64,000 nucleotides of DNA from a virus. The translations under genes and the position numbers were made by a program. The stretch lies in the IMG/VR virus record IMGVR_UViG_3300027970_000006; one strand, written 5' to 3'. Below the pieces are notes generated by a model. It saw nothing but the letters and a program-made list of their open reading frames with translations. It made no database searches and was not told where the DNA came from. Below are positions 45,476 to 64,000 of this stretch, one piece after another (positions within the stretch are counted from its first letter, which is position 1; every line of letters begins with the position of its first letter).

Positions 45476-47842
45476 ATGGCATATCAAAATATAAATCAAT
45501 ATAATTATCAGAAATTAAAAATGCAAGTCATTTATGACGGGCAAGATATGTCGTTGGCATCTGATGAGGTTGATTTTAATCAAGAAGTTGTGTTTTCACC
45601 ATACTTAATTGGTGTTGATGATGGTGAAAAATTACCAATATCTCTTAATCTTAATAGTCCTTTAACTACCCAAAATCTTAATTTAATCTATGGAAACTAT
45701 GACATCAATAACGTTATTGTTTCTGAAAATTTTTACCAACCAAAAGATTTAAATTTAAATTGTTTTAGTTCTAACACAACTTGTGATATTGGTTTAACAG
45801 GTATTGACAATGGATTGGTTACCAAAATTAAAGGGGACTCTTTAGTTTTTACTAATGGTTTATTTACAGACGCAGAAAAATTTGACAGATTATATTATGA
45901 CAGAAGAATGAAGTTCATTCAAACAACAACAAATGTTCCGTCTAACAATAAGTTTTCAGGAATACCTGAATACACAACATATCAAATGGTCTCAAAAGTT
46001 AGTCCAATTTTTGGAAGGTATGTTGAACTTTATGGTGGTTTTTATCAAGGGTTTTATAAGTTATTTGGTTATGACTATGATATTCTTCCTGAAAGAATGC
46101 ACAAAGGATGGTCTGTTGAATTATTATTAAAACCAAGATTTGGTGATGAATATTCTCCACCGCCAGGATATACAACCTTAAATCAAATATACCCCAACAA
46201 TAAAAATACTTTCTTTTATATGGGGACAAGGGCCGAAAATAAATTCTATCATTACGCCGATGGTAAAGCAAAATGTGATCCTGATTATGTTAGGGTTACG
46301 TCTGGTTTAACAAAAGAAGAAACTTGTGCTTGTTGTGATTATTCGGTTAATAATAGTAGATGTATATATGTGTATCCACCAAGACCTATTGGTGGTGTTT
46401 ATGATCCACATCTAAACTACGGATGTAATTTATGTAAAGGTGACAATGAACAAAAACTCACTTGTGGTTGTGGTTGTGATCAAGAACCTTGTGAAACTTG
46501 TGGGTGGATGTGTTTTCAACATAATTGCTCAACAATTAATGTCCCAACCCCAACCCCGACTCCAACACCAACAACAACTCCCCCTTGTGATACCTATCCT
46601 TCGGTGATTGCGTGTAGTCCAACGGTTCCATGTTGCACGTCTTGTCCTTCATGTGGATGTGATACTTGTGGATGCCCTCCATCATATCCATCAACAATTT
46701 TTTCATCAGTAGAAGATACTTGTGAAAAAGATCCAAAATTTGATGCGTTATCCAATAATATTTCATTTAGATTATGTGGTGAACCACAAAACCCCGGAAT
46801 TGGTATTAGAGCAATTAAAATTACGGGAGATTGCGTAACAACAGGTTCTTGTGTGACAGGTCAAACATATGTGACAGGATATACGATAGTTGACATTTGC
46901 ACCCCACCAATTTACCCGTATTGTTTAGAAGTGAACCCATCTTGGTTAGGTATTGAGCATTGGTTTTTACTTAATGTTGTTTGGGAACGATATACTTATT
47001 TAGATTATTGTGATTTAAGATGGTTTGGTGGATTAGACGATATAACAAGAGTAGAATTACTTCAAAGTTTGGCAAACAACACGGTATCGTTAATCGCTCC
47101 TCCATACACAAACGGATATGAAGTCCCTGGCCAAGTTGAGATTGTTCAATTAAATCAAAGATGGTTAGACGACACCAAGTTTAGAATGGGTAGATTAAAG
47201 ATCTATATTAATGGTAGAATATTTTATACCATAGAAGATTTTGAAGAAGTAATACCAAGAGGGTTAGACACAGATAAAGAAAAACAAGTTGGGGTTCCTT
47301 TTAATATGTCTTGGGGTGGTGGAACTCAAGGTCTTCACGAAAACTTAACCCTTAATTTTTGTAAAATTTGGAGTTATTCTGTAGGAAATGTAACCACAGA
47401 TATAGTTTATAATGATTGTGATAATAATCCAATAACATTATCAGGTCTTACAAATGTGTCTGGAAGTATTATTGTTGATAAAAACTCAACACCATATTTT
47501 ACAATTTCAGATATAAATAATGTTTTAAGTTTTACGGGAGATTATTCGTTAAAAGCGAATGACTATAATCAAGACCCAGAATGTTTCCCAAATAATATTT
47601 TAAGTGCCACGACATTAAATAAATTAAAGACACACATTTTATTAGAAGAAAACTTTGCAGGAACTTTTGATGGGGCAATTTCTCAATTTAGATTTTACAC
47701 CGAACCATTGTCTTCTCCTGAAGTAAAACATAATTTCAAATTATTAAGAGATACTTTTTATATGTTTGATCCCGATTGTCCAAATTGTGATCTTGCCGCT
47801 TGTCTCCCTAATGATTTTACTTATACAATAATTAACACATAG
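45476..47842 (+). CDS. Cys-rich putative virion protein with LamG/concanavalin-like elements (start ATG 45476; track 45452)
   Basis: GWSVEL.L, G.LKIYING, F.G.ISQFRFY..PL...EV..NF; Cys-rich/TP insert. Confidence 0.6.
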   Translation: MAYQNINQYNYQKLKMQVIYDGQDMSLASDEVDFNQEVVFSPYLIGVDDGEKLPISLNLNSPLTTQNLNLIYGNYDINNVIVSENFYQPKDLNLNCFSSNTTCDIGLTGIDNGLVTKIKGDSLVFTNGLFTDAEKFDRLYYDRRMKFIQTTTNVPSNNKFSGIPEYTTYQMVSKVSPIFGRYVELYGGFYQGFYKLFGYDYDILPERMHKGWSVELLLKPRFGDEYSPPPGYTTLNQIYPNNKNTFFYMGTRAENKFYHYADGKAKCDPDYVRVTSGLTKEETCACCDYSVNNSRCIYVYPPRPIGGVYDPHLNYGCNLCKGDNEQKLTCGCGCDQEPCETCGWMCFQHNCSTINVPTPTPTPTPTTTPPCDTYPSVIACSPTVPCCTSCPSCGCDTCGCPPSYPSTIFSSVEDTCEKDPKFDALSNNISFRLCGEPQNPGIGIRAIKITGDCVTTGSCVTGQTYVTGYTIVDICTPPIYPYCLEVNPSWLGIEHWFLLNVVWERYTYLDYCDLRWFGGLDDITRVELLQSLANNTVSLIAPPYTNGYEVPGQVEIVQLNQRWLDDTKFRMGRLKIYINGRIFYTIEDFEEVIPRGLDTDKEKQVGVPFNMSWGGGTQGLHENLTLNFCKIWSYSVGNVTTDIVYNDCDNNPITLSGLTNVSGSIIVDKNSTPYFTISDINNVLSFTGDYSLKANDYNQDPECFPNNILSATTLNKLKTHILLEENFAGTFDGAISQFRFYTEPLSSPEVKHNFKLLRDTFYMFDPDCPNCDLAACLPNDFTYTIINT

Positions 47843-49351
47843 ATGAGTCAGAATATATTAATTAATAGTGTTTTTTATGATGGCGAATTGGCCGAAGTTT
47901 TATTCAAACCAGACAATGACGATGTTGTTTTAAATTTTGACCAAATAACATTACCATTTTTATTTGAGCCTTATTTATTATTTCCGCCAAGAGAGATTTA
48001 TGGGACATATACGATTAAACCTGTTTCATCAAGTTGTCCTTATTTTTTAAACGTAGTTAGACCAACCCCAACTCCGACGCCAACACCAAGTCCTACAAGA
48101 ACTCCGACACCAACACCTACAACAACAAATACACCAACACCTACATTAGACCCGTGTAAACTACCAAGTCCAACGCCAACATCTACTTTAACACCAACAC
48201 CGACACCAACAATTAGTGTGACTCCGACACCAACACCGACTTGGAATCCATGTATTACTCCATTCCCACAACTTATGGTAAATATTTTGTTGGAGATAAT
48301 TCCAGGATCTGTAAAATTAAAAGCGACGGTATCATATAATCAAGGTTTACCAAATGACACATATATTTGTTTTGATGCAATATTAACAACAAAAACAAAT
48401 GAAATAATTGTTGTTCCAAAACGATTTTTAATTAATTCTGGAACAATGATGGGCGTATTTGAAACAAAATTAGATTTAGATTTTGATTCAATAAAAGATG
48501 TTGTGTTTATTGAAAATACTCAAATTGAGGGTCATGATATTACACCAAATTTTATACAAGAAATAAAAAAACATTTACCACCAACTAATACACCAACACC
48601 GACAAATACCCCAACTAACACACCGACAAATACCCCAACTAATACTCCAACTCCAACACCAACAAATACCCCAACACCAACAAATACCCCAACACCTACA
48701 ATTACACCAAGTGTTGGGTCATCACCAACACCAACTCCAACTAATACTGCAACTCCTACGGTAACTCCTACAAATACATTAACGGCAACTCCTACGGTAA
48801 CTCCTACAATTACACCCACAACCACTGAAACACCAACTCCTACACCAACTAATACATTAACTGCAACACCTACAAACACACCAACACCTACTACCACTGA
48901 AACTCCTACACCGACACCTACAACCACTGAAACTCCTACACCGACACCTACGTCAACTAACACTCCTACTCCTACGTCAACTAACACTCCTACTCCTACT
49001 CCAACATCAACACCAACGACTATTCCAAAAATTTATTTTGGAAAATCAGTAAACGCAAACTTTAATTCAGGAGACGAGTTGTTGTTGTCGACAATTGATA
49101 CTTCGCAAACAACTAATTTATATTTGGAAATTCCATCAGGTCCGGGTTATTTTTATATTTTAATTCCATCCGCAAGTAATCAACCATCAATGTTTAAAAA
49201 TAGTGATTCGGGTTGTAATGGTTTTGTTATTCCGATAACAACAAAACCTGATGTAAATATAATTGACAATTTTGGGAACTATACTATTTATTCAGTATAT
49301 AGATCATATATATCAACCTTTGCTAAAGTTGATGTGTGGGTATGTGAATAA
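47843..49351 (+). CDS. Thr/Pro-rich mucin-like putative virion protein
   Basis: Two long (TP)n/(TPTN)n tracts separating globular segments. Confidence 0.75.
48578..49026 (+). repeat. Low-complexity Thr-Pro coding repeat (a second tract lies at ~48062-48241)
   Basis: ACACCAAC/ACTCCTAC units. Confidence 0.9.
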
Positions 49352-49377: not shown

Positions 49378-50163
49378 ATGGCCGATTTTAGTAAAATCGG
49401 TGGGGTGGGGATTATGGGCTTCATCTCCCCGATGGACACATTAGACACTTATGCAGTTATTGATCCTTTATATGGTATTGATGGATTACGTAATGTTGAC
49501 GAAGAATCGGATTTAAATTTAATACCATACGACAGGAGAAGACCTGGTATGATTGTCGGAACTGATGGAGGTTCTAAATTTTTCAAACTTAAAAACATAT
49601 TTTGGTCTTTTGAATTAACAGATTGGGAAGAAATTTTTTTTTTAAGTTCCACCCAATTAGATGTTCTTAGAAATTTACCCAATAATTTAGTAGTCCCTGG
49701 TGTTAATTCATCAACATTTATTGATCGTGAATTAATTTCAGGATCTATCAATAGTGTAAATAAAGAATTCCAACTTCGGTTTACACCTGAATTAAATTCA
49801 GAACACATTTATTATAATGGACTCTTACAAGATAAAGGATCGGATCTTGATTATAGTATAAGTGGAAAAACAATCACATTTAATAATCCTCCAAAAATTG
49901 GAAGTAAATTACTTTGTTCGTATAGAACTTATAGTGAAATTAATTTTATTGATCACGAATATCCTATTGGTAAAATAAATGGGGTTAATCGTATTTTTGA
50001 ACTTAGTATTAAACCAAAAACAGGAAGTGAACACATCTATTTGAATGGTCTTTTGCAAGACTTTGGTGAAAATAATGATTACACAATAAATGGAAAAACC
50101 ATAACATTTAGTATTTCACCACCTTCTTGGAGTAAAATAACCTGTTCATATAGATTTAATTAA
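49378..50163 (+). CDS. Putative virion protein with two tandem beta-rich modules
   Basis: Two copies of G.IN.VN..F.L...P...SEHIY.NGLLQD.G...DY.I.GKTITF...P...SK..CSY. Confidence 0.7.
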   Translation: MADFSKIGGVGIMGFISPMDTLDTYAVIDPLYGIDGLRNVDEESDLNLIPYDRRRPGMIVGTDGGSKFFKLKNIFWSFELTDWEEIFFLSSTQLDVLRNLPNNLVVPGVNSSTFIDRELISGSINSVNKEFQLRFTPELNSEHIYYNGLLQDKGSDLDYSISGKTITFNNPPKIGSKLLCSYRTYSEINFIDHEYPIGKINGVNRIFELSIKPKTGSEHIYLNGLLQDFGENNDYTINGKTITFSISPPSWSKITCSYRFN

Positions 50164-50229: not shown

Positions 50230-50466
50230 ATGATGGAACAAGAAGAAAAATACTCAACGTCAGATTTATATTTAGGGGCGTATTTAAAATTAAAAGGATT
50301 TAAGATGTCTGTTGAAAAACAAAGAAATAAAGCTGTTTTTATGTTTGATAAGACGGAAGAAATACAACAAGAAGTTAATAATTACTTAAATGAAAGTGGT
50401 TCATGTGGACCCCTTTTATATACAAATTCAATTAAGAATTTAAAAAATTTATTATATAATTTGTAA
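50230..50466 (+). CDS. DUF5659-like small protein
   Basis: TSDLYL.AYL...G.........F.F..........Y..........Y...IK.LK pattern. Confidence 0.65.
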   Translation: MMEQEEKYSTSDLYLGAYLKLKGFKMSVEKQRNKAVFMFDKTEEIQQEVNNYLNESGSCGPLLYTNSIKNLKNLLYNL

Positions 50467-50698: not shown

Positions 50699-53530
50699 AT
50701 GGCTACTACTAAAATAGTTTTAGACTTACAATCGGACTTGGTATTATCAAGTCCATCAATCACAACCCCAATTGGTATCGTTGCTGGTGACATCGCTTAT
50801 GGTTCATCAAACGTTAATGCTGAGTTAGGAACGTTGTCTTCAAACATCGCTCAAGAAGTTGTTGATCGTGCTACTGCGGTTACTTCTGAAGCAACAGCAA
50901 GAGTTTCAGGTGATAATTCAGTTGCATCTAATTTATCTTCTGAAGTTGTTAACAGAACAAACGCGGTTTCTTCTGAAGCTTCTACAAGATTGGCTGCTGA
51001 CAATTCATTGGCTACTTTAATCTCTGTTGAAATTTCAACTGAGCACGCTCATCACTCAACTGCCGAAGCATCAATCGATTCAAGAATTTCAACTGAAGAA
51101 GACGCTAGATTAAACAAAGATAACTCTTTGGCTACGTCAATTTCAAATGAAGTATCTGACAGAACTGCTGCCGTTTCTTCTGAAGTTGTTGCAAGAACCG
51201 CTGCTGATAATTCATTGGCTTTAGATTTAGCTTCTGAAATCACTAACAGAATTTCTGATGTTAACGCTGAAGAAACAAGAGCTATGGCTGCTGAGTTATC
51301 ATTGAAAACTGATTTGACAGCTGAAGGTTCAAGAGCAATGTCTTCAGAGGTTTCTATCGCTAACGATTTAGCCGCTGAAACTACTGCAAGAATTGCTGAC
51401 GTTGATGCTGAAGAATCAAGAGCTATCGCCGCTGAAGGTTCATTAGCTGCTGATTTAGCTTCTGAAGAATCTGCTCGTATGGCAGCTGACGCTTCATTAA
51501 ACACCAAAATTGAATTCGTTATTTCGAATACTGATGCGGCTGCATTAGATTCATTAACAGAAATCGTTGGTGCGTTCCAATCGGCTGATGGTGACATCAA
51601 CAACGCTATCACTACATTAGCAACAAATTCATCAATTGCAGTATCAACTGAAACTTCAAGAGCAACTGCTGCCGAAGGTTCTATCGCTGCTGATTTATCT
51701 TCTGAAATCGTAAACAGAGGTTTAGATGTTGATGCTGAAGAAGCAAGAGCACAATCTGTTGAGGCAGACTTATCTGAAGAAATTTCTTTAGAAGTTGCTA
51801 ATAGATTAGCCGAGGTTTCAACTGAAAAAGCTAGAGCAATGGCTGCGGAAGGATCTATTGCAACTGACTTGGTAACTGAAACAACTAACAGAACAAATGC
51901 TGATGCTTCATTGGCTACTTTGATCTCAACTGAAATTTCTACAGAACACGCTCACCACGTATCTGCTGAGAATTCATTAACAACAAGAGTTTCATCTGAA
52001 GAGTCAAGAGCTACTGCAGCTGAAGGATCATTAGATACTAAAGTTTCTGTTGAAACTTCAAGAGCTACCGCTGCTGAAGCGTCTATCGCATCTAACTTGT
52101 CTACTGAAATCGTTAACAGAACTGCTGATGTTGATGCTGAAGAATCAAGAGCTATGGCCGCTGAGTTAGTATTAACTAACAATTTATCAACTGAAGTATC
52201 TAACAGAATAGCTGACGTTGATGCTGAAGAATCAAGAGCTATGGCTGCTGAGTTAGTATTAACTAACAATTTATCAACTGAAATCGTTAACAGAATTGCT
52301 GACGTTGATGCTGAAGAATCAAGAGCTAAGTCTGCTGAGTTAGTATTGACTAACGCAATCAATGCTGAAGAAACTGCTCGTGAAAATGCTGATAACGCAC
52401 TATCTCAAGAAATCTCTGAGTGTTGCTCAATCCACACATCTGTTGATGTTGTTTTATCAGGTGAAATCATTAGAGGATTTGGTTCAATCGAAACTACGGT
52501 TTCTACTAAAGAATCTATGGCTATCGTAAGAGAAGATAGTATTGATTCTAAATTGTCTTCTGCAATTTCTTCTGAAGCATCTTCAAGAGTATCTAAAGAT
52601 GGTTCATTAGAGTCTGTAATTTCAGAAGCTAAAACTTCTATCAACAACTCAATTTCTTCTGAAGCTTCTTCAAGAGTATCTGGTGATCTTTCATTAGAAA
52701 ACGCAATTGCAAGAGAAGAAGGAAGAATTGACGCAATCCTTGATGGTTCAACAGTTGATTTAGATCAATTTGCTGAAATCGTTTCTTTTGTTAATGGAAT
52801 TGACTTAGAAAATGATAACGCATTGTTAGCTGCTGTAACTTCAATCGGTACTGCAATTGGTAATGAAGAGTCTTCAAGAGTATCTAAAGATAATTCATTA
52901 GAATCTGTAATCGCAACAAACAGAACTGACGCTAACACAGCAATGTCTACTGAAGTTTCTAACAGAGTTTCTGCGGATAATTCATTGTTTGTTCAATTGA
53001 ATGACAAAATCAACAACGAAATCTCTGATAGAACTGCTGACGTTGATGCTGAACAAGCAAGAGCTGAAGGTGCTGAAGGGATGTTGAATACGAAAATCAA
53101 CACTGAAATCTCTAACCGAGTAGATGCTGACTCTTCATTAGCTACATTGATTAACAATGAAGTAACAAGAGCTCAAGGTGCTGAAGGTTCATTAGAGGCT
53201 GCATTGTCTTCTGAAGTTGCTAACTTGTTATCAAATACAGACTTAACTGCAATTGATTCATTCTCTGAAGTAGTAACTGAATTAGACGCTGTTAAAGGTA
53301 TAATCAACAACACTTACTTCAAGAAAGTAGCAGTTTCTGGTTTAGTTAATGGAACTAACAAAAACTTCACCCTTGCATCTGAAGTAAGATCTAATTCTGA
53401 AACAATCTACTACAACGGATTGTTACAAGAAGAAGGTGTTGACTACACAATCTCAGGTGGTACTAACATCCAGTTTACTTATACTCCTAAAATGGGTGGT
53501 AAAGTAACTGCTTACGGTGTTTACGCTTAA
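50699..53530 (+). CDS. Long alpha-helical coiled-coil fibre protein with C-terminal beta module
   Basis: Repeated (S/A)E..RA..A(D/E).SL motifs, LDS..EI..A motifs, and a C-terminal module shared with 49378..50163. Confidence 0.75.
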   Translation: MATTKIVLDLQSDLVLSSPSITTPIGIVAGDIAYGSSNVNAELGTLSSNIAQEVVDRATAVTSEATARVSGDNSVASNLSSEVVNRTNAVSSEASTRLAADNSLATLISVEISTEHAHHSTAEASIDSRISTEEDARLNKDNSLATSISNEVSDRTAAVSSEVVARTAADNSLALDLASEITNRISDVNAEETRAMAAELSLKTDLTAEGSRAMSSEVSIANDLAAETTARIADVDAEESRAIAAEGSLAADLASEESARMAADASLNTKIEFVISNTDAAALDSLTEIVGAFQSADGDINNAITTLATNSSIAVSTETSRATAAEGSIAADLSSEIVNRGLDVDAEEARAQSVEADLSEEISLEVANRLAEVSTEKARAMAAEGSIATDLVTETTNRTNADASLATLISTEISTEHAHHVSAENSLTTRVSSEESRATAAEGSLDTKVSVETSRATAAEASIASNLSTEIVNRTADVDAEESRAMAAELVLTNNLSTEVSNRIADVDAEESRAMAAELVLTNNLSTEIVNRIADVDAEESRAKSAELVLTNAINAEETARENADNALSQEISECCSIHTSVDVVLSGEIIRGFGSIETTVSTKESMAIVREDSIDSKLSSAISSEASSRVSKDGSLESVISEAKTSINNSISSEASSRVSGDLSLENAIAREEGRIDAILDGSTVDLDQFAEIVSFVNGIDLENDNALLAAVTSIGTAIGNEESSRVSKDNSLESVIATNRTDANTAMSTEVSNRVSADNSLFVQLNDKINNEISDRTADVDAEQARAEGAEGMLNTKINTEISNRVDADSSLATLINNEVTRAQGAEGSLEAALSSEVANLLSNTDLTAIDSFSEVVTELDAVKGIINNTYFKKVAVSGLVNGTNKNFTLASEVRSNSETIYYNGLLQEEGVDYTISGGTNIQFTYTPKMGGKVTAYGVYA
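52094..52354 (+). repeat. 87-bp coding repeat x3 (NLSTEIVNRTADVDAEESRAMAAELVLTN)
   Basis: Near-identical GTTGATGCTGAAGAATCAAGAGCT...GAGTTAGTATT units. Confidence 0.85.
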
Positions 53531-53551: not shown

Positions 53552-53580
53552 AAAAGGGGTTCTTCGGAACCCCTTTTTTT
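53552..53580. terminator. Bidirectional Rho-independent terminator
   Basis: AAAAGGGGTTC-TTCG-GAACCCCTTTTTTT (cUUCGg loop) between convergent genes. Confidence 0.92.
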
Positions 53581-53597: not shown

Positions 53598-54800
53598 TTA
53601 AAGATTATCGTATCTATTTGTGTTTGGATTATAAACCAAATCTTTATTTCCACCATTAAAAAGATTATAAATCAATTTGTCATAAGTTTCAATAAGTTCT
53701 TGATTATCTGCGTGATACCTTTGTAAAACCAAATCATTTTTTTTGTGATATTCCGTAATATTTTTATCGTGTTCGGTTAAAATATAATTCAACATTTTGG
53801 CACCTTCTTTTGTGTCACTATTTTCATAATAATAACCAAGATCTTTACAAAGTGGTGCGTTATGTAAAACAGGATACCCCAAATAAGCAGCATCCAAATA
53901 CAAATAATTTAAAGGGTTTAATATTTGGTGACAAATTAAAACGTCAAAATATTGGGTTAAAACAAATGATGTTTGATATCTTGATTCTGCGGTGATTTTT
54001 TTATCTTCATACAGATCAAAAGTTTTGATTATGGATAAAAACTCATAATTTTCTTTAAGTTTTTCGCCATTTGTAATCATAAGTTTATCAATTTTATTTT
54101 TTCCTGTTTCAGTCCTATAAGATTCTTCAGCAATCATTGTTGGGATTATAGAATATTTAACAACATTGATATTTGGTTCCATAATTCCTAGTACCTTTTT
54201 TTCTTTGTCGGGGTTATATTTATAACCTTTTTTATAACGACCATCTTTAAAACCACTTTCAATTCCAATCACCGCTTCAAGTAAGAATTTATTATGCCAA
54301 ATGAAAGGAACAATGAATGAATTTGTTCTATATAGTGTTGAGAAAAATCCGTTATTTGTATCGTGTTGTTGTGGAATATACCATAGTTCATCAAATGTCG
54401 TTTCATATTCAAAATATCTTTTTTTGTTTTCTTTAAACAAAACATTTTCCATGTGAATTACATAATTGTTTCCGCATTTGTAACCGATAAATCTTTTATT
54501 TTTATCTTCTTTAAACTTCTTAATATCTTCTTCGTAAACTTGGGCTCCCATCATTACAATAAGATCCATTTCCATAAACTTATCTTTAAAGTTATAGATA
54601 TTGATATCTTTAAGATATGAAGGTCTTTTTTCAGAAAAATCTACATCAAATGTGTTTAATATAAAAACTTCATAATTGTTTTTGGATTGTTTTAATAAAT
54701 GAACGAACATTAGAACATTTTGTTTCATTCCGTTTGTCCATATTGATTCTGTGTTTGATTGTAAACCTAATGTAATTCCAATTTTTAAATTTTTCATCAC
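53598..54800 (-). CDS. DUF2827-family protein (putative glycosyltransferase fold)
   Basis: SIW.NG..QN..., IMEPN..VVK....P, HQ..N.LNYLY.DA...GYP.LHN. Confidence 0.75.
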   Translation of the reverse strand: MMKNLKIGITLGLQSNTESIWTNGMKQNVLMFVHLLKQSKNNYEVFILNTFDVDFSEKRPSYLKDINIYNFKDKFMEMDLIVMMGAQVYEEDIKKFKEDKNKRFIGYKCGNNYVIHMENVLFKENKKRYFEYETTFDELWYIPQQHDTNNGFFSTLYRTNSFIVPFIWHNKFLLEAVIGIESGFKDGRYKKGYKYNPDKEKKVLGIMEPNINVVKYSIIPTMIAEESYRTETGKNKIDKLMITNGEKLKENYEFLSIIKTFDLYEDKKITAESRYQTSFVLTQYFDVLICHQILNPLNYLYLDAAYLGYPVLHNAPLCKDLGYYYENSDTKEGAKMLNYILTEHDKNITEYHKKNDLVLQRYHADNQELIETYDKLIYNLFNGGNKDLVYNPNTNRYDNL

Positions 54801-55441: not shown

Positions 55442-57034
55442 ATGCCAATTTATAACAGATTAACAGATAGATCAAAAGTTTCTGCGATCACATTGAATGA
55501 TATTATTCACGTAGTAGTTACGGGGGATACATCACAAAGTCCGCAAGGATCGTCATATTACGCACCCTTAACGTATTTACAAGCGATTTTAAGTGGATCA
55601 TCAGGTACTAACGGAACATCAGGAACTAACGGAACCAATGGTACTAGTGGATCATCAGGTACTAACGGAACATCAGGAACTAACGGAACTTCAGGAACGA
55701 ATGGTACAAGCGGAACTAATGGATCTTCGGGTACCAATGGTACAAATGGAACTTCAGGGACTAACGGCACTAGTGGTACTAGTGGTATATCAGGGGTAAA
55801 TGGTACTTCAGGTACTGATGGAACAAGCGGAACATCACCGGCAGTTCCGGGATTAAATAATGAAATATTAACTTCAGATGGTTCAGGTGGAATAGTTGCC
55901 GAAAGTAATATGACTTTTGATACTACATTACTAAACATAACTGGCCGTACTGATATCTATGATACAATAGGAACTATTCCTTCATTAAAAATATTTTCAC
56001 AACATAATTTTCCACAACACTCTTCTTTATTGATCGATTCTGAAGGAACACCAACTGGTAATACAAAATTATACGGAGCAGAAATTACTGTTTATGGTGC
56101 TTCAAGTTCAAACACAGGTATTTTAATTAGTGCAGGAGGAGATAATGACGGAAATAATACAGGTATAGACGTATCGAATAATTCCACAGGATATGGAACC
56201 TTTCCATTACAGTATGGAATAAAAGGTCTTGTTTCGGGATCTATTACCAATGGTTTTAGTAGAAAATATGGTTCTAACTTTGAAGTTATAAATCAATCCC
56301 AACGTAATATAGGTTACTCTGTCACGGTTTCAGATGCAACTATTTTTAACATAGGTTACGAAGCCTTTATTAATGGGACAACAGGAGATAGTATTGGTAT
56401 GCAAGTGCTTAACACTAACGCCGACACGAATGGTGGTGATTCTCAAACAGGCGCTTTGATTAATGTTTTAGGTGGTGGTAGTTTTCTAAGTACAAATAAA
56501 AAAGGTTTAGATGTTAGTGTTAATGGAAGCGCACAATCAAATATAGGTTTACGATCTTTTGCTAGCGGTGCGTCACAAAATTATGCAATATACACTTCAG
56601 GTGGAAGATTTTCTTTTTATCACGACCCAACTTCAGAATTAACGGGAACAACCAGTGTTGAAGGTTATGGTGATATAGTAACTTTTGGTGGTGTTGGTAG
56701 TTCGTTTAATGCTGGTGATGTTGTTTATTTAGATATTAATGGTGATTGGTTAAAAACCGATGCTACAACCGCAACAACATCAACTAGTATGTTAGCAATT
56801 GCGTTAGGTAGTAGTCCATCGGAAGGTATGTTGGTTAGAGGTTATGCGTATAATAGTAGTTGGGGGTTTACTATCGGTGTTCCTCTATATTTAAGAAGTG
56901 TCCCTGGTTCCATCACAGAAATAGCTCCTGGTGGAACAGGTGAAGTGGTTAGAATTGTTGGGTATGCCACAGGAGATGTTGGGAGTGGAAAAAAAATATA
57001 TTTTAATCCCGACAATACTTGGGTAGAATTGTAA
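55442..57034 (+). CDS. Putative tail/capsid fibre protein with Gly-Thr-Ser/Asn collagen-like repeat
   Basis: (GTS/GTN/GSS)n tract, beta-helix-like middle, C-terminal GD.VYL...G.W...VG.A...IYFNP domain. Confidence 0.75.
   Translation: MPIYNRLTDRSKVSAITLNDIIHVVVTGDTSQSPQGSSYYAPLTYLQAILSGSSGTNGTSGTNGTNGTSGSSGTNGTSGTNGTSGTNGTSGTNGSSGTNGTNGTSGTNGTSGTSGISGVNGTSGTDGTSGTSPAVPGLNNEILTSDGSGGIVAESNMTFDTTLLNITGRTDIYDTIGTIPSLKIFSQHNFPQHSSLLIDSEGTPTGNTKLYGAEITVYGASSSNTGILISAGGDNDGNNTGIDVSNNSTGYGTFPLQYGIKGLVSGSITNGFSRKYGSNFEVINQSQRNIGYSVTVSDATIFNIGYEAFINGTTGDSIGMQVLNTNADTNGGDSQTGALINVLGGGSFLSTNKKGLDVSVNGSAQSNIGLRSFASGASQNYAIYTSGGRFSFYHDPTSELTGTTSVEGYGDIVTFGGVGSSFNAGDVVYLDINGDWLKTDATTATTSTSMLAIALGSSPSEGMLVRGYAYNSSWGFTIGVPLYLRSVPGSITEIAPGGTGEVVRIVGYATGDVGSGKKIYFNPDNTWVEL
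55594..55836 (+). repeat. Gly-X-Y coding repeat (GTS/GTN/GSS)
   Basis: About 27 consecutive G-X-Y triplets. Confidence 0.9.
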
Positions 57035-57070: not shown

Positions 57071-57169
57071 AATATCTAAAATAGAATATGTAAAAGGACC
57101 AATACTTGACCCAAAATCTAAAACAATATCACCCTCATTAACTTCAAAAAACTTTTCATATATTCTGTC
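57071..57169 (-). pseudogene. In-frame FkbM-type methyltransferase fragment beyond the TAG of 57170..59476
   Basis: EIF*DRIYEKFFEVNEGDIVLDFGSSIGPFTYSILD (SAM-binding motif I), then similarity is lost. Confidence 0.65.
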
Positions 57170-59476
57170 CTAAAATATTTCAGAAGTTATCGTTTCTTTA
57201 TACCACTCACTTTGATTACCCCAATTAAAAGAAGTTATATTATTTCTAATTTTATTTATTTCTTTTATCACCATCTCTGATGTTATTTGTTTTGAACACT
57301 CAAATTGACGATCAGTTCCTTTGTGTAAAGGACACCAATCCCAATCTCCTGCGTCTAATCTATCCCAATTAAAACATCCATGACAAACGTTTTCATTTAT
57401 TACCCTATATGTGTCTAATTTTGTTTCAGCCCATTTTTCACTAAACCCCGATATAAGAACAACGGGTAGTTTACAAGCCCAGGCTAACCAAGACAACCCT
57501 GATCCAAGACCTATAAAAAATTCACAAGTAGATAGATCATTAATTACCTCTTGTAAATTTCCACCTTTAAAAACTGAAACTCCTTTTGGGTAAAAGTTAT
57601 TCATATACCCATCACCTTCTTTTGAGTAGATCATACATTCATACCCAAGATTATTTAAGTAATCAACAACTTCTTGCCAACCATTTTTATTGTTCCAATA
57701 TTTTGCTTGTGATGTAGAATGAAAACCAATCCCAACTTTTTTCTTTTTTTCTACATTTGGTAAATTAAGATTTGGTCTTATTTCTTTATAATCTAAACCA
57801 AGAATATCGGTTGCCGTTTTTTGAAGTGGTTGTGTTTTAATATCTGTTTTATGAATATTGGAGTTTAATTCCCCGTCTTCATTATAAAACCAACCCAATC
57901 TGTATTGTGCGTAGATATTTAAAACAACTTCGCCAGGTTCAACAAAATCTATTTCGGGGTATTGATCTTTAAATAAACTATTAAGGAAAGTAGACACTAT
58001 AAGTTGACAACCGTGTTTTTTTCTAAATACCTCACAATAAGGGATCCATGCTAATGTATCACCAAGAGATTTTGACCCAAAAGAAATATAAACTCTTTTG
58101 TTTTCCAGATCTAAAACATTTTCATAAATAAGATTGTTGTTTTCTCTAACTTCAGTTTTCCATTTTGTATAATATTCTCGGTTGAGTTTAACCCAACTAT
58201 TTATTTTAATTTTGTTTTCATAAACCAAAGATTTCTCATCAAATAATTTAATATTAAACTCTCTATCCCCCTGACCCAATATTTCAAAAAACGGGTTCAC
58301 AACAAAATGTTGTTTAATAACATAATCGTTTTCAATCGGAATATTATTGTATTTTTCAATTTTTAAAACCTCATCATAAAAAGATAAAAGATCTTTTCCA
58401 AAATCTTTTTGATTTTCTATTTCATATGTTTTATCACTACTAATGAGTTTTAATAGTTGATTAGAAATGTTTAAATAATCATTAGTTTCTATTGGTGTGA
58501 TATAGTTATCAAACATTCCCATATAATGTAAAAAGTTTCTTGCAATAATCTTCATACCATAATTGATTGCTTCTCTAATTACCAACGGATTACACTCCCA
58601 AACCGAATTAAACATCATAACATCACAAGCAATCATAAATGAATCAACATCATTTCTTTCACCCCAAATTGTGACATTCTTTGGTGGATCATTCATAATC
58701 GGTTCCCAATAGGTCTTAAAGTTTTCTGCTTGGTTTCCAATAAAATGAAAATGTAAATCGGGATTACTATTTTCAAGTAATCTTGCAACTTCAATACCTT
58801 CTTTTTGATTTTTTCCTTCGGTCCATAACCCAACATTTAAGATGTGGGTTTTAGTTGGGTCTATTTTTAACTTTTCTCTTTCTGTTAATTTTTTAAGTAA
58901 CGGAACTCTGTGTTCGGTTAAAGGTATATCTAATTCTTCTAAAATGGTTTTTACTTTATTTTCATATGGATATGTATGAAGTTTCTTATATGATTTTTCA
59001 GATTTAAATGTTTCAAAATGATATGGGGTCACAAAAGAATATGCATCAGGGTGTAATTTTTTATTTTCAGGGTTATACCAAACATTATGACAGGTTTCAA
59101 TTATTTTCCAAGACCTTTTGTTATCATAAAGTTGGTTTAATAAGTTTAATGGTATTTTATTAAAACTTTCAAACCCTTCTGATATTTCTTCAACATGAAC
59201 GATGTCTATTTCATTTTGTTGTATAATTTTAATTAGATCATATTTTTTATCACTTTGAGTTGTTTCTCCTAAGGTATAAAAATGATCCATACCTAATAGA
59301 GTTATTATTTGATTTCTTTGAACTACGTATGTATCACTGAATTGTGAGTATTCAACCAAAAAGATCTCTACTTGGTCTTTGAATTTTTGAAGTGATTCAA
59401 TTCTTTTTAAGACAAATTGGGGCATTCCTCCTGTGGATAAATGTGGTACAAGGTATAATATTTTAATGATATCCAT
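57170..59476 (-). CDS. Fusion: GT4-like glycosyltransferase + Aah/TibC-type (autotransporter heptosyltransferase-like) domain
   Basis: N: HLSTGGMPQ, S.WECNPL..REA. C: SLGDTLAW.PY...F..KH.C, K.WNN..GW, FIGLGSGLSWLAWA...PVVLISGFS, CHGC...WCP...FECSK.IT. Confidence 0.8.
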   Translation of the reverse strand: MDIIKILYLVPHLSTGGMPQFVLKRIESLQKFKDQVEIFLVEYSQFSDTYVVQRNQIITLLGMDHFYTLGETTQSDKKYDLIKIIQQNEIDIVHVEEISEGFESFNKIPLNLLNQLYDNKRSWKIIETCHNVWYNPENKKLHPDAYSFVTPYHFETFKSEKSYKKLHTYPYENKVKTILEELDIPLTEHRVPLLKKLTEREKLKIDPTKTHILNVGLWTEGKNQKEGIEVARLLENSNPDLHFHFIGNQAENFKTYWEPIMNDPPKNVTIWGERNDVDSFMIACDVMMFNSVWECNPLVIREAINYGMKIIARNFLHYMGMFDNYITPIETNDYLNISNQLLKLISSDKTYEIENQKDFGKDLLSFYDEVLKIEKYNNIPIENDYVIKQHFVVNPFFEILGQGDREFNIKLFDEKSLVYENKIKINSWVKLNREYYTKWKTEVRENNNLIYENVLDLENKRVYISFGSKSLGDTLAWIPYCEVFRKKHGCQLIVSTFLNSLFKDQYPEIDFVEPGEVVLNIYAQYRLGWFYNEDGELNSNIHKTDIKTQPLQKTATDILGLDYKEIRPNLNLPNVEKKKKVGIGFHSTSQAKYWNNKNGWQEVVDYLNNLGYECMIYSKEGDGYMNNFYPKGVSVFKGGNLQEVINDLSTCEFFIGLGSGLSWLAWACKLPVVLISGFSEKWAETKLDTYRVINENVCHGCFNWDRLDAGDWDWCPLHKGTDRQFECSKQITSEMVIKEINKIRNNITSFNWGNQSEWYKETITSEIF

Positions 59477-59591: not shown

Positions 59592-59894
59592 ATGTCTAAT
59601 ATAATTCAAATAACCTCAATATCGGGAACCCCTCCTTATGATATATATGTTTGTGATCAAACAATCACATATTGTTATTTGGTGTCAGGATCTACGTTTA
59701 TTATACCACCTTTAACTTTTAGTGTTCCACCACCATTAGATACGTCAACACCAATTATATTAAAGATTATTGACTCTTTGGGTTGTGAAAAAATATTTCT
59801 TCTTACTTGTGGTGAAATTTATGGAAAATTATTTGAAGGATTTGAGGTGTTCTTGTTTCAAGATGCTGCGATTTATTTGTTTGAAGGTCCTTAA
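59592..59894 (+). CDS. Small putative virion protein (start ATG 59592; track 59577)
   Basis: I.SISG.PPY.IYVCD...KIIDS.GC pattern. Confidence 0.6.
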   Translation: MSNIIQITSISGTPPYDIYVCDQTITYCYLVSGSTFIIPPLTFSVPPPLDTSTPIILKIIDSLGCEKIFLLTCGEIYGKLFEGFEVFLFQDAAIYLFEGP

Positions 59895-59907
59895 CAATTT
59901 AAAAATT

Positions 59908-60606
59908 ATGGAAACTAAGACTTGTAGTTGTTGTCAAGAAACAAAAGATATTATTGAATTTGGTTTAAAGGGAACCAATAAGGATGTCCTGCAAAGCAGG
60001 TGTAAAATGTGTCGTAAAATAGAGTCAAGACAGTATCTTGAGAAAAATCCAAATGTTAATAAACTTTATTGGGAAAAAAATAAAGAGAGAAGAAGTGAAG
60101 AATATAAGAAATGGGTCTCTATGAACGAAAATTACCATAAAGAATGGAGATTAAAAAATTCAGAAAAAGTAAAACAATCTCGTAAATCATATGAGAAAAA
60201 AAATAAAGATAAGGTTAATGAATATAAACGACTAAAACGAAGTGAAAATTTAGAAGATTATCGGGAGAAGGAACGACTTAAATATGAAAATAATAGCCAT
60301 CTAAAATTAATTAGAAACTATAGAACTAGAGTTAAAAACTACATTAAGTTCAATAAGTTTTCGTTAAATACGGGTACTTACGAAATTGTTGGTTTAACAT
60401 CAACTGAGTTAAAAATCTATCTTGAATCTAAATTTGTTGATCTTATGTCATGGGATAATTACGGACTAAGTGGTTGGCATGTTGACCATATAATACCTCT
60501 GTCCTCCGCAAAAAATGATGAAGAATTAAAAACGTTGTGTCATTACACAAACCTACAACCTTTATGGTGGTTTGATAATTTAAGTAAGGGTTGTAAAATA
60601 GTTTAA
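59908..60606 (+). CDS. HNH homing endonuclease (start ATG 59908; track 59770)
   Basis: K.CSCC...F......CK.C, MSWDNYG..GWHVDHIIPL...LCHYTNLQPLW..DN.SK. Confidence 0.85.
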   Translation: METKTCSCCQETKDIIEFGLKGTNKDVLQSRCKMCRKIESRQYLEKNPNVNKLYWEKNKERRSEEYKKWVSMNENYHKEWRLKNSEKVKQSRKSYEKKNKDKVNEYKRLKRSENLEDYREKERLKYENNSHLKLIRNYRTRVKNYIKFNKFSLNTGTYEIVGLTSTELKIYLESKFVDLMSWDNYGLSGWHVDHIIPLSSAKNDEELKTLCHYTNLQPLWWFDNLSKGCKIV

Positions 60607-60662: not shown

Positions 60663-61910
60663 ATGAACACCATTTTTATACAAATTGCGTCCTACAGAGA
60701 TCCTCAATTAATTCCGACAATTAAAAACTGTATTGAGAACGCAACTCATCCTGATAATTTAATTTTTGGGGTATGTCGACAATATCACCCTGAAGATGGT
60801 TTTGATGACTTATCCGAATATGATGGCGATGAAAGATTTAGAATCTTAAACATTAATTACACCGAATCTAAAGGCGTTTGTTGGGCGAGAAATCAAGTAC
60901 AACAATTATATAAAGGTGAAAAGTACACCCTTCAAATTGATTCCCATATGAGGTTCGAAAAGGGTTGGGATGGTACATTAATTAAGATGATAAAACAACT
61001 CCAAAAAAAGGGACATAAGAAACCTTTACTTACGGGTTATGTTTCATCATTTGACCCTGAAAATGATCCTGAAGCAAGGGTGCAAGAACCTTGGCGAATG
61101 TCTTTTGATAGATTTACACCTGAAGGTGTTGTATTCTTTTTACCTGAAACAATTCCAGGGTGGAAAGAAATGAAAGAGCCTATTCCTGCAAGATTTTATT
61201 CGGCTCATTTCGCATTTACGTTAGGTCAATTTAGTACTGAAGTACAACACGACCCTTTATATTATTTTCATGGTGAGGAAATTTCAATTGCGGTAAGAGC
61301 GTTTACCTATGGTTATGACTTGTTCCACCCACATAAAGTAGTTGTTTGGCACGAATATACGAGGAAATCGCGTGTGAAGTGCTGGGATGATGATAAAGAA
61401 TGGCATTTAAAAAATACGGCATGTCATAAAAGAAACAGACAACTACTTGGTGTTGATGGAGAAACATATAATGGTGATTATTCAGAATGGTTTGGGTCTG
61501 AAAGAACCATTAGAGATTATGAAAAATACGCAGGAGTTCTTTTTGAAACAAGAGGCATTCAACAAGAAACAATTGATAAAAAATATCCCCCAAATACATA
61601 TGAGTTTAAGTCAGAAGAAGAATGGAAAAATTCATTTTCAACCATATTCAAACATTGTATTGATTTAGATTTAAATCGTGTTCCTGAAACTGATTATGAT
61701 TTTTGGGTTGTCGCTTTCCATGATAAAGAACATAACACACTATTTAGACAAGACGCCGACGCCAATGAGATTATGAGAATAAAATCTGATCCTGATGGTT
61801 ATGGTAAAGTATGGAGAGAGTTTAATACAACGGAAATTCCTTCATATTGGGTGGTTTGGCCACACTCTATATCTAAAGATTGGTGTGAAAGAATTATAGG
61901 TAATTTGTAA
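60663..61910 (+). CDS. GT60-family polypeptide N-acetylglucosaminyltransferase-like protein
   Basis: TIFIQIASYRDP, S.G.CWAR, LQIDSHMRF..GWD, FHGEE...AVRAFT.GYDL. Confidence 0.85.
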   Translation: MNTIFIQIASYRDPQLIPTIKNCIENATHPDNLIFGVCRQYHPEDGFDDLSEYDGDERFRILNINYTESKGVCWARNQVQQLYKGEKYTLQIDSHMRFEKGWDGTLIKMIKQLQKKGHKKPLLTGYVSSFDPENDPEARVQEPWRMSFDRFTPEGVVFFLPETIPGWKEMKEPIPARFYSAHFAFTLGQFSTEVQHDPLYYFHGEEISIAVRAFTYGYDLFHPHKVVVWHEYTRKSRVKCWDDDKEWHLKNTACHKRNRQLLGVDGETYNGDYSEWFGSERTIRDYEKYAGVLFETRGIQQETIDKKYPPNTYEFKSEEEWKNSFSTIFKHCIDLDLNRVPETDYDFWVVAFHDKEHNTLFRQDADANEIMRIKSDPDGYGKVWREFNTTEIPSYWVVWPHSISKDWCERIIGNL

Positions 61911-61913: not shown

Positions 61914-62513
61914 ATGGTTAAAGGGCATTTTGTATACGAAAACTTAATTATTAGCCAACACCAAAATGTTGGTGAAAAGTTTGATTTATTAATTTCAGAA
62001 TTAAAACCAAAAAGAATATTAGAGATTGGCACCGCAAATGGTGGTTTAACTTTAATGTTAAGAAGATTATTAAATAAAAATAATCTTAATGAGTCAATTA
62101 TTAGAACTTACGACATATTAGAACAAATCAATTTAAAAAATAAAAATGAGGCAGGAATTGAGATCATAACAAAAAACCCGTTTAACTATCCGTATAGTGA
62201 TTTAGAACATAGAAAAGAAATTGAAGACTTCATACAACAGGATGGTATTAGTTTGGTTTTATGTGATGGTGGTAGTAAAATTAATGAATTTAGATTATTA
62301 TCTTCTCTTTTAAAAATCGGAGATGTTATCATGGCTCATGATTATGCTTACGACGAAGAATATTTTAAAAATCATATTGAGAACAAGATATGGAATTGGC
62401 ACGAAATACAATTTTCAGACATAAAAGAATCTTGTGAAAAAAATAATTTAGAGTCCTACATGAACGAAGATTTTCAAGACGTGGTGTGGGTGTGTAAAGT
62501 AAAAGTAAAATGA
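61914..62513 (+). CDS. Class I SAM methyltransferase (CmcI/Methyltransf_24-like)
   Basis: ILEIGTANGG, LCDGG, AHDY. Confidence 0.75.
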   Translation: MVKGHFVYENLIISQHQNVGEKFDLLISELKPKRILEIGTANGGLTLMLRRLLNKNNLNESIIRTYDILEQINLKNKNEAGIEIITKNPFNYPYSDLEHRKEIEDFIQQDGISLVLCDGGSKINEFRLLSSLLKIGDVIMAHDYAYDEEYFKNHIENKIWNWHEIQFSDIKESCEKNNLESYMNEDFQDVVWVCKVKVK

Positions 62514-64000
62514 TCACATTAGTAACTGGTTTATGGGATATTGGTAGAGGAAACTTATCTGAAGGTTGGTCAAGATCTTTTGATCACTACTTAAATAAGT
62601 TTGAACAATTATTACAAGTAGATTGTAATATGATAATTTTTGGTGACAAAGAATTAGAAAGGTTTGTCACAGAAAGAAGAAATGAAGAAAACACACAATT
62701 TGTTTTAAGAGATTTAAGTTGGTTTAGAAATGGTGAGTTTTTTGATCAAATACAATCAATTAGAAATAATCCAAAATGGTATAATTTAGCCGGATGGTTA
62801 AAGGACTCAACTCAGGCAAAATTGGAAATGTATAACCCATTGGTTATGTCCAAAATGTTTATATTACACGATGCCCTTCTTTTGGATAAATTCAATTCAG
62901 AAAAACTTTATTGGATTGATGCTGGTTTGGCAAATACCGTTAATATGGGTTATTTTACTCACGATAATGTTTTACCAAAGATAGATAAATTATCCGATAA
63001 TTTTTTATTTGTTTGTTTTCCATATCAAGCGGATCGTGAAATTCATGGGTTTAACATTGATAAGATGACAGAGATAACGGGAACAAAAGTTGATAAAGTT
63101 TGTCGTGGTGGATTTTTTGGTGGAACAAAAGAGGTTATTCGTCAAATGAATACCCTTTATTATGAACTTATTAAGTCAACATTACAAAGGGGTTTAATGG
63201 GAACCGAAGAAAGTTTATTTTCAATTCTTTTATATAACAATCCAACAATTACCGATTATGTTGAAATTGAGTCAAATGGTCTTGTTTACAAATTTTTTGA
63301 AGACATTAAAAATGATACGGTAGAACTAAAAACATTAAGAAAAACAAAAAAAATAGTTAAAAGTTCATCGGGAGACGTTGGTCTATATGTTATTTCGTTT
63401 AATAGTCCAAAACAATTTGAAACGTTAATCAATTCTATGATGGAATATGATTCTGATTTTATTTCTAAAACAAAAAAGTTTTTATTAGATAATTCAACAG
63501 ACCTATCAACAACACCAAAATATTTAGAACTCTGTGATCAATATGGATTTGAACATATCAAAAAAGATAATATTGGAATAACTGGCGGTCGTGTTTTTGT
63601 GGCGGAACACTTTAACGACTCCGATATGGACTATTATTATTTCTTTGAAGATGATATGTTTTTCTATAATGGTAGTGAAAATGTTTGTAAAAATGGTTTT
63701 AATAGGAAAACTAAAAATCTATACAGAAAAGTTTTACAAATATTTAAAAAAGAAGAATTAGATTTTCTTAAATTAAATTTTACGGAGTTTTTTGGTAGTC
63801 ATGAAAAACAATGGTCGTGGTATAATGTGGATCAAGAGTTTAGAAAAAGTCATTGGCCTATGAACCAAAATTTACCAAGACACGGACAAGACCCAAATTC
63901 ACCATGTTTAGAGTTTAAAAATATAAAATCATATGAAGGTATTCCATATGCCACAGGAGAGGTATATTTGTCTAACTGGCCAATTATTTTATCAAAAGAA
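62510..64000 (+). CDS. HtrL/YibB (WlaTC)-family protein fused to a GT-A-like domain; partial, runs off the window
   Basis: MITLVTGLWDIGRG...RSFDHYL, YNPLVMSK, YWIDAG, GGFFGG, GTEES, then LDNS, FFEDDM; open to the end of the window; absent from the ORF track. Confidence 0.75.
   Translation, partial: MITLVTGLWDIGRGNLSEGWSRSFDHYLNKFEQLLQVDCNMIIFGDKELERFVTERRNEENTQFVLRDLSWFRNGEFFDQIQSIRNNPKWYNLAGWLKDSTQAKLEMYNPLVMSKMFILHDALLLDKFNSEKLYWIDAGLANTVNMGYFTHDNVLPKIDKLSDNFLFVCFPYQADREIHGFNIDKMTEITGTKVDKVCRGGFFGGTKEVIRQMNTLYYELIKSTLQRGLMGTEESLFSILLYNNPTITDYVEIESNGLVYKFFEDIKNDTVELKTLRKTKKIVKSSSGDVGLYVISFNSPKQFETLINSMMEYDSDFISKTKKFLLDNSTDLSTTPKYLELCDQYGFEHIKKDNIGITGGRVFVAEHFNDSDMDYYYFFEDDMFFYNGSENVCKNGFNRKTKNLYRKVLQIFKKEELDFLKLNFTEFFGSHEKQWSWYNVDQEFRKSHWPMNQNLPRHGQDPNSPCLEFKNIKSYEGIPYATGEVYLSNWPIILSKE

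Follow-up and report, generated by a model that had tools for sequence, protein, structure and literature searches.

Why should a bacterial virus carry genes for sugar-transferring enzymes between the genes of its long, hydroxyl-rich proteins? The question is raised by IMG/VR record IMGVR_UViG_3300027970_000006, of which a stretch of 64,000 nucleotides (nt), here called the window, was analysed; all coordinates refer to this whole stretch. In its last part, from position 45476 to the end, glycosyltransferase (GT) genes alternate with genes for repeat-rich proteins, and the initial annotation had read this arrangement as a phage-encoded system for the O-glycosylation of virion proteins. Comparison with other phages partly supports that interpretation. 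We consider it fairly probable that the phage glycosylates its own fibres, of which at least three types would each have a dedicated soluble GT. All five translations proposed as substrates do contain hydroxyl-rich repeats, far beyond what chance would give. Among the proposed enzyme families, DUF2827, the GT4-TibC/Aah fusion, GT60 and HtrL_YibB are borne out by profile scores, the methyltransferase call being weak and below the Pfam cut-offs.

The first pairing consists of a collagen-like protein and a BAHT enzyme. The gene for a 530-residue collagen-like fibre (55442–57034, + strand; PF01391, Collagen, with 48 bits where the Pfam cut-off is 27, E 8e-13) converges with a gene (57170–59476, − strand) for a 768-residue fusion of a GT4 domain (about residues 1–400) with a BAHT domain of the TibC/Aah type (about residues 405–750), and a terminator-like hairpin lies between the two (57096–57112, −). 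The fibre is laid out as an N-terminal segment of 50 residues, 27 uninterrupted G-[TS]-[SND] triplets, a middle part that resembles a β-helix and a C-terminal domain of predicted β-tulip fold. The triplets are G-T-S, G-T-N or G-S-S, with Thr or Ser at X and Ser, Asn or Asp at Y. Their proline content is zero, although bacterial and phage proteins of this type often have Pro at X or Y.

This pairing is conserved in both directions of comparison. Neighbourhoods were read with flanks of at most 10 kb. In the loci retrieved through the enzyme (L001–L017, the nearer clade), the BAHT fusion gene is convergent with the gene of a giant collagen-like protein wherever downstream DNA exists. The reverse comparison drew on 80 loci, 54 of them non-redundant, fetched through the C-terminal domain of the fibre. 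A BAHT gene lies within 5 kb of 14 of the 17 Gly-X-Y fibres that share this domain and have enough flanking DNA, and near none of the 13 complete fibres that have the same domain but lack Gly-X-Y repeats (Fisher p = 5e-6, a value that overstates independence and support, as the lineages are related). The BAHTs of the 14 linked loci are 42–90% identical to the window BAHT and differ in domain architecture. Two of the three exceptions, collagen-like with no BAHT, carry ordinary GPT/GAT collagen with 15–18% Pro; the BAHT-linked repeats are all proline-free, with Ser or Thr at 65–99% of X and Y positions. This contrast between repeat-bearing and repeat-free members of a single fibre family suggests that it is the Ser/Thr repeat with which the BAHT enzyme is associated.

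The longest such repeat found belongs to a 3,130-residue proline-free collagen-like protein in L012/L013 (12974–22366, −), with 861 consecutive triplets, which at 0.286 nm per residue corresponds to about 0.7 micrometres. Its gene adjoins that of a 1,527-residue enzyme with GT25-like, GT4, BAHT and FkbM domains.

Judged by its sequence, the window enzyme is a true member of the BAHT family. Its BAHT domain scores 292.5 bits against TIGR04414 (curated equivalog cut-off 200; model positions 27–374 of 374) and matches TibC (PDB 4rap) with a phmmer E of 1.6e-64. With residue roles taken from the TibC structure paper (PMC4358343), the catalytic base Asp110, the β-phosphate ligands Thr226 and Lys230 and the sugar ligand Trp305 are all present. 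Asp110, Thr226 and Trp305 are kept in 30 of 30 distinct phage BAHT domains, and Lys230 is replaced by Arg in two distant ones. The four iron-finger cysteines (Cys339, Cys342, Cys358 and Cys370) occur in the window enzyme and in every phage and bacterial relative examined. The type activity of the family uses ADP-heptose to place heptose on Ser residues in the passenger of an autotransporter, and TibC assembles as a dodecameric ring (PMC4358343); there is no autotransporter in the window.

One position of the active site is exceptional. In TibC, Arg286 forms a hydrogen bond to adenine N1, which is given as the basis of ADP-sugar specificity, and the R286A exchange abolishes or largely diminishes activity (PMC4358343). 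The window BAHT and all members of its clade have Val at this position, whereas L017 has Thr and distant phage clades have Arg, as do 72 of 80 bacterial BAHT relatives. As the adenine contact is Val in the window clade, the name heptosyltransferase is not to be assumed for its members. The only nucleotidyltransferase of the window, encoded at 30481–30924, was considered as a source of ADP-heptose and rejected: its scores against RfaE domain II (80 bits, cut-off 181) and TagD (72 bits) are ambiguous, and those of its homologues beside Arg-containing phage BAHTs (L034, L036) are equally so, which leaves no heptose pathway that could be claimed.

Most BAHT relatives have 957–981 residues and an added C-terminal FkbM methyltransferase domain, and some reach about 1,500 residues with further GT domains. 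The window fusion lacks the FkbM domain. The same short form is found in a 272-kb contig (L039/L064), so that it is a natural variant and not an assembly fault. Compared with its relatives, the window copy is also reduced in having 27 triplets, no stand-alone GT9 and none of the four small open reading frames (ORFs) between the enzyme and fibre genes.

The pairing extends to cellular genomes. It recurs beside the bacterial BAHTs closest to the phage type, one of them on a complete 5.2-Mb chromosome. The classical, Arg-containing BAHTs often adjoin very large Ser/Thr-rich ORFs instead, which are autotransporter-like in size and composition. In a set of Arenicellales and gammaproteobacterial metagenome-assembled genomes (L234, L237, L238, L240, L241 and L275, with L238 a complete chromosome), BAHT genes that stand alone and encode Arg286 adjoin two or three small proline-free Gly-Ser/Thr proteins of 126–216 residues and 23–28 triplets. 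These loci look like a cellular version of the BAHT-collagen pairing with very short ‘collagens’.

Where on the particle might such a fibre sit? An AlphaFold (AF2) model of residues 150–530 (predicted local distance difference test, pLDDT, 78) shows a C-terminal β domain and a middle part in which DSSP assigns no regular secondary structure. Compared by VIA-align against 48,161 chains, the C-terminal domain matches proteins of Pam3 (Z 8.6), Adjutor (Z 8.4), HFTV1 (Z 8.0) and XM1 (Z 7.9). Capsid decoration proteins take every one of the first 13 rows, with matches at Z 8.6–5.3, and TW1, Sf11, E217 and the phi29 head-fibre base gp8.5 (Z 5.7) also appear, as do herpesvirus triplex proteins and, lower down, lambda gpD (Z 2.5). 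Known proteins of this fold have about 110–130 residues and bind capsids at three-fold sites. For the middle part, the match is to the β-helical streptococcal phage hyaluronidase HylP (Z 5.4–5.6). Foldseek results for the fibre model are weak (best E 7e-3). Three distant phages (L098, L101 and L135) have a gene for this C-terminal domain in the head module, flanked by the protease gene on one side and the scaffold/major capsid protein genes on the other. From the decoration-protein fold and this position in the head module, we suggest with moderate confidence that the collagen-like protein is a head fibre anchored by its modelled β-tulip domain. Two things count against a head location: Z values up to 8.6 fall in a range where only a common arrangement may be shared, and the database BFVD labels some relatives ‘tail fiber-like’. 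A match of the collagen part to 8zxl (‘spindle/axial fibril’) was discarded, since that entry comes from a study of animal-collagen assembly and is not a phage structure.

The second pairing joins DUF2827 to a different kind of fibre. A 943-residue protein rich in Ser, Thr and Ala (50699–53530, +; S+T 23%; phrog_13589, E 3e-16) is read from its sequence repeats as a coiled-coil fibre and is the candidate DUF2827 acceptor. Upstream of it are genes for a 261-residue fibre adaptor (49378–50163, +), with PHROG matches to virion structural and tail-fibre families, and for a small conserved protein of 78 residues (50230–50466, +), copies of which, 55–92% identical, lie between adaptor and fibre in most loci. 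The adaptor precedes the fibre in most loci, and its repeated module recurs at the fibre's C-terminus. Downstream, a GC-rich hairpin with A and T runs on its flanks (53552–53577; 11-pair stem with 5 GC pairs), probably a bidirectional terminator, separates the fibre gene from the convergent DUF2827 gene (53598–54800, −). The latter forms an operon with the gene of a J-domain protein (54797–55351, −; HPD motif in ‘CHPDKS’; Pfam DnaJ E 6.6e-5, below the cut-off), which would probably recruit the host DnaK.

DUF2827 matches its Pfam profile PF10933 over the full length (328 bits against a cut-off of 25, E 7e-98; profile positions 1–362 of 362), and 762 metagenomic relatives were found. Its AF2 model (pLDDT 80, predicted template-modelling score 0.80) gives Foldseek matches of which the top 50 are almost all GT-B/GT4 enzymes, the best being BshA (3mbo; E 1e-10, TM 0.57–0.61). 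The protein thus models as a soluble, GT-B glycosyltransferase-like enzyme. The cassette of adaptor, 78-residue protein and fibre, convergent with DUF2827 and the J-domain gene, occurs in about 27 distinct loci, fetched both via DUF2827 and via the fibre. Some of these carry a DUF2827 only 35–37% identical, the cassette is absent mainly where fibre similarity is only 27–32%, and the J-domain gene is paired with DUF2827 in nearly all loci. In bacteria, DUF2827 is a cytoplasmic, GT-like protein constantly found beside trimeric autotransporter adhesins (bioRxiv 10.64898/2026.01.22.700529). With BAHT also paired with an adhesin in bacteria, the two phage enzymes would mirror two bacterial families of adhesin-modifying enzymes.

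The third group lies at the 3′ end of the window, where genes for a GT60-family enzyme (60663–61910, +), a probable methyltransferase (61914–62513, +) and an HtrL/YibB-like protein (62510–64000, +, running past the 3′ end at 64000) follow one another. The GT60 protein, a soluble GT-A enzyme resembling polypeptide GlcNAc-transferases, scores 237 bits against Pfam PF11397 (cut-off 21, E 5e-70) and contains the motifs IASYRD, DSH (‘QIDSHMRF’) and FHGEE, among which D-x-H is the metal-binding motif of this GT-A family. The 199-residue methyltransferase, a weak call as an S-adenosylmethionine-dependent enzyme, has the motif ‘ILEIGTANGG’ and a homologue of 48% identity at the same position in L046, L047 and L058. 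The HtrL-like protein, 555 residues long in relatives and GT-A-like, reaches 65 bits against PF09612 (cut-off 24, E 1e-17) and 74.6 bits against TIGR02192, below the equivalog cut-off of 264.9 that marks orthologues of E. coli YibB; the Atlas places it in a phage-wide, phage-specific family with weak leads to GT2 and to the GT domain of the collagen-modifying enzyme PLOD.

The candidate acceptors of this group are proteins with Thr-Pro (TP) tracts. One is a 502-residue protein (47843–49351, +; S+T 30%) in which two long TP/TPTN linker tracts separate small globular domains, and its homologues also carry TP tracts. Another is a 307-residue (TPTN)n protein between the large terminase and portal genes (6065–6988, +). 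A TP-rich ORF lies within 3 kb of 15 of 30 distinct GT60 genes, compared with 6.7% of control ORFs, an approximately sevenfold enrichment, and in seven lineages of 50–78% identity the gap is below 100 bp. In relatives a TP-rich gene also lies about 1 kb past the HtrL gene, a position beyond the end of the window. The co-occurrence of GTs and repeat proteins across phages that the initial annotation had proposed as a check is thus found for BAHT with proline-free collagen-like fibres and for DUF2827 with coiled-coil fibres; for GT60 with TP proteins it is weaker, still enriched, and suggestive only.

It is on this group that the best-surviving alternative turns. Only BAHT with its collagen-like fibre, and perhaps DUF2827 with its coiled coil, might be true enzyme-substrate pairs, with GT60, HtrL, the methyltransferase and a second sugar cluster (described below) present for other reasons and the TP tracts serving as plain flexible linkers. 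In its favour, 11–15 kb separate GT60 from the closest long TP tract in the window and its nearest relatives, no GT gene adjoins that of the TPTN protein at 6065, TP-rich neighbours are missing from the four GT60 loci that are most distant, and nothing links the second cluster to fibres. The short gaps in seven lineages and the sevenfold enrichment argue the other way, as does the family's biochemistry: all characterised GT60 enzymes, to our knowledge, act on polypeptides, with Thr, Ser or Hyp as acceptor. We therefore regard a restriction to these pairs as rather unlikely, and retain the wider proposal that the third group also acts on virion proteins.

The second sugar cluster (25863–42709, −; Pfam/NCBIfam) comprises four GT2 domains, GT25, GT11, GT10, GT4, an FkbM methyltransferase, a hexapeptide acyltransferase and a short DegT-like ORF, together with a WbuC cupin, a GDP-mannose 4,6-dehydratase and the small nucleotidyltransferase; PhoH, dUTPase and exonuclease genes are interspersed. 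The GT and sugar-nucleotide families that had been assigned to it are present, and its proposed part in fibre glycosylation finds no link to any fibre within the window. The DegT/aminotransferase-like ORF (31906–32505, −; 199 residues) matches two separated parts of a family profile of about 370 residues and is likely to be an aminotransferase that has been truncated or has decayed. Between the two sugar clusters, at 43409–43789 (−) and 39880–41216 (−), are genes for a small, weakly supported WYL-domain-like protein, a dUTPase with an N-terminal extension and a PolB-exonuclease-like 3′–5′ exonuclease, which are syntenic in L014, L041 and L046.

Could the enzymes instead remodel host envelope glycans, such as lipopolysaccharide (LPS), capsule, S-layer or host adhesins, and so block superinfection or keep progeny from sticking to debris, the fibres themselves being unmodified? 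Marine cyanomyoviruses have similar islands, in which GT2, GT10, GT11 and GT25 genes accompany those of sugar-nucleotide enzymes and to which authors usually assign a role at the host surface (PMC12801897), and GT9, GT25 and HtrL are by name families associated with the LPS core. In the window, however, no GT or candidate acceptor contains a membrane or signal segment, and there is no flippase (Wzx), polymerase (Wzy), ligase or undecaprenyl-phosphate/phosphoglycosyl transferase, which fits a stepwise glycosylation of cytoplasmic virion proteins and speaks against a lipid-linked envelope pathway. BAHT and GT60 are moreover protein-acting families, and envelope remodelling would leave unexplained why BAHT tracks proline-free collagen-like fibres but not their repeat-free relatives, and why DUF2827 tracks one fibre type across distant phages. 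We consider it improbable. More improbable still is that phage DNA or a small molecule is the target and the neighbourhood of fibre genes incidental. Phage DNA-hypermodifying GTs are diverse according to Pyle 2024 as cited in PMC12619734, the second cluster includes genes for an exonuclease and a dUTPase/dCTP-deaminase-like protein, and T4 α-glucosyltransferase is among the DUF2827 GT-B fold matches (one of many, at rank 29). Yet the window showed no hydroxymethylase gene, no DNA-modifying enzyme is known from the BAHT, GT60 or DUF2827 families, and the fibre-specific linkage would be left unexplained.

Glycosylation of the phage's own fibres could then proceed through three modules, for which we infer the acceptors from the gene neighbourhoods. 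In module B, the collagen-like protein would be a trimeric fibre whose C-terminal β-tulip domain probably docks on the capsid. The GT4-BAHT enzyme, encoded convergently, would most likely act on its proline-free Gly-Thr-Ser/Asn stalk: hydroxyls of Ser and Thr would receive their first sugar from the BAHT domain and a second from GT4, and in relatives the FkbM domain may methylate the glycan. In module A, the Ser/Thr-rich coiled-coil fibre, with its adaptor and 78-residue protein, would be paired with DUF2827, and the J-domain protein, by recruiting host DnaK, might keep the fibre chains in a modifiable state. In module C, GT60, the methyltransferase and the HtrL-like GT-A enzyme would act on the Thr-Pro linker tracts. 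Each of these reactions would precede assembly, occur in the cytoplasm of the host and contribute to a particle with glycosylated fibres, for which fibre stability, resistance to proteases or grazers, and adhesion are candidate purposes.

Several points weigh against this proposal. The support for the phage members is genomic and consists of family membership, conserved catalytic residues, folds and gene linkage. The Val at the Arg286 position makes the donor sugar, and even the activity, of the window enzyme uncertain, and the reduced window copy may be less active than its relatives. Characterised BAHTs act on β-helical autotransporters, not on collagen-like repeats. The Pfam matches of the methyltransferase to CmcI, FtsJ and Methyltransf_24 (E 5e-4 to 5e-3) are all below the cut-offs. 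The distance of GT60 from long TP tracts and the solitary TPTN protein at 6065, given above, belong here as well.

A bolder form of the proposal would make the sugar structurally required. The proline-free Gly-Thr/Ser-Ser/Asn repeats might form a collagen triple helix only after BAHT has loaded their hydroxyls, as a viral counterpart to the galactosyl-Thr collagen of vent worms, giving a glycan-coated, ‘hairy’ head with β-tulip anchors on the capsid, built with a toolkit that is shared with bacterial adhesin enzymes (BAHT, DUF2827) and has been exchanged between cells and viruses. We put this forward as a tentative and doubtful possibility. Were it true, a calculation from the 861 triplets of the longest relative would allow fibre lengths of several hundred nanometres.

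The remaining genes of the fibre region are of varied character. At its 5′ edge, a Cys-rich 796-residue protein with a short (TP)n tract (45452–47842, +; ATG at 45476) is always followed by the Thr-Pro protein. It has syntenic homologues of 45–86% identity in L014, L041, L045–48, L063–65 and L068, and no Pfam, PHROG or PDB match. PDB sequence searches with this protein, DUF2827, GT60 and the coiled-coil fibre returned nothing useful. A conserved module of about 100 residues (P0006; 59577–59894, +) has counterparts in other phages that either immediately precede the gene of the collagen-like fibre or are fused into multi-domain proteins rich in Thr-Pro. Between this module and GT60 sits an ORF (59770–60606, +; likely start METKTC...) that was considered as a missing GT and ruled out, its translation being an HNH homing endonuclease by motif. 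It is not part of the glycosylation system. Related copies occupy varying places in L042, L044, L063 and L070, and by these positions the endonuclease is mobile within the fibre region.

The phage itself is, to judge from its genes, a large uncultured tailed phage of T4-like, lake type. This assignment rests on PHROG matches to a large terminase (4282–6060), a portal (7037–8836), a prohead protease (10708–11436) and a T4-type major head protein (13230–15143), and on the nearest relatives of the last: the closest catalogued head proteins, 41–46% identical, come from an uncultured 484-kb phage, the Microcystis phage Mel-JY01 and the Flavobacterium ‘immuto’ phages. The window has about 30% G+C and densely packed genes; its PhoH was found by Pfam. 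A promoter scan of the window gave no more sites than shuffled sequence.

The head module has features of its own. The major head protein (+; 637 residues) matches its PHROG, and relatives by tblastn, only over about residues 311–614, which leaves an N-terminal extension of about 300 residues with no recognised relative. Just 5′ of its gene, a probable scaffold protein (11786–13171, +) contains extremely acidic repeats with DDETEI and MEMDDMEM units. Immediately after the head gene, a 559-residue ORF (15251–16930, +) matches ‘homing endonuclease/HNH’ PHROG families from end to end (E 5e-82). L087 has a counterpart at the same position with 73% conservation; both this degree of conservation and the size are unusual among homing endonucleases.

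If the pairings are real enzyme-substrate pairs, virion glycosylation would be widespread in large aquatic phages, given hundreds of metagenomic relatives, and phages would be using enzyme families that bacteria use on adhesins. Glycosylation of phage particles has so far been shown only in some actinobacteriophages, with other enzymes and short acceptor tails. A glycan coat would alter the view of adsorption, of stickiness to mucus and particles, of resistance to proteases and grazers, and of antibody recognition. DUF2827 would gain a testable function, both in phages and in pathogens with trimeric autotransporters, and the collagen-like fibre with its enzyme would offer a system for asking whether a collagen helix can be stabilised by sugars in place of proline. 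A literature search on phage BAHT, BAHT-collagen pairing, DUF2827-fibre pairs and GT60 in phages found no relevant publication, most subscription journals being outside its coverage.

Among known systems, the nearest are TibC-TibA and Aah-AIDA-I of E. coli (TIGR04414; PDB 4RAP/4RB4; PMC4358343). The window BAHT is a true sequence relative of these enzymes with conserved catalytic and iron-finger residues, and shares with them the setting of a soluble cytoplasmic enzyme beside a long, repetitive, Ser/Thr-rich surface fibre, which would be modified many times before export or assembly. In contrast to TibC and Aah, it is phage-encoded and fused to GT4 (and to FkbM in relatives), its neighbour is proline-free and collagen-like instead of a β-helical autotransporter, and the Val in place of the adenine-reading Arg286 means that ADP-heptose may not be its donor. 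The phage DUF2827 belongs to the same Pfam family as the proteins beside trimeric autotransporter adhesins of Burkholderia, Veillonellales and Pasteurellales (bioRxiv 10.64898/2026.01.22.700529), with the same GT-like fold, cytoplasmic location and long, repeat-rich fibre neighbour. Its partner, however, is a phage fibre that lacks a membrane anchor, and an HPD J-domain protein is co-encoded.

Glycosylated exosporium protein BclA of Bacillus anthracis, with its GXT repeats, offers a parallel for the stalk. So does the cuticle collagen of Riftia, in which galactosyl-Thr is described as stabilising a proline-poor collagen (Mann 1996 and Bann 2000, as cited in PMC10141479). In both, Gly-X-Y repeats are Thr-rich and poor in Pro or Hyp, and sugars on Thr decorate or stabilise the triple helix. 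The phage repeats differ in having Thr or Ser at X, Ser, Asn or Asp at Y and no Pro at all, and their triple helix is putative. By VIA-align, the C-terminal domain of the fibre shares the β-tulip fold of decoration proteins and head fibres (lambda gpD, phi29 gp8.5, TW1, Pam3 and XM1; PMC7602432). In phi29, this fold anchors the head fibre; the predicted anchor in the window is C-terminal and bears a collagen-like stalk and a β-helix, with moderate Z values.

Glycosylated virions have two precedents. Mycobacteriophages encode GTs close to their structural genes and use them for the O-glycosylation of their own virion proteins (Freeman et al. 2023, Cell Host Microbe, PMC10527164; cited in PMC12619734 and PMC12801897). 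The glycans, which have been demonstrated in that case, are carried by C-terminal extensions of capsid and tail-tube subunits, and the GTs come from other families. The window candidates are instead dedicated fibres with hundreds of potential sites, paired with BAHT, DUF2827 and GT60. The giant eukaryotic viruses (Mimivirus and chloroviruses; PMC9614988) likewise encode sugar-nucleotide enzymes and GTs that glycosylate their own surface proteins, including fibrils, independently of the host, whereas the window belongs to a bacterial virus and uses different GT families.

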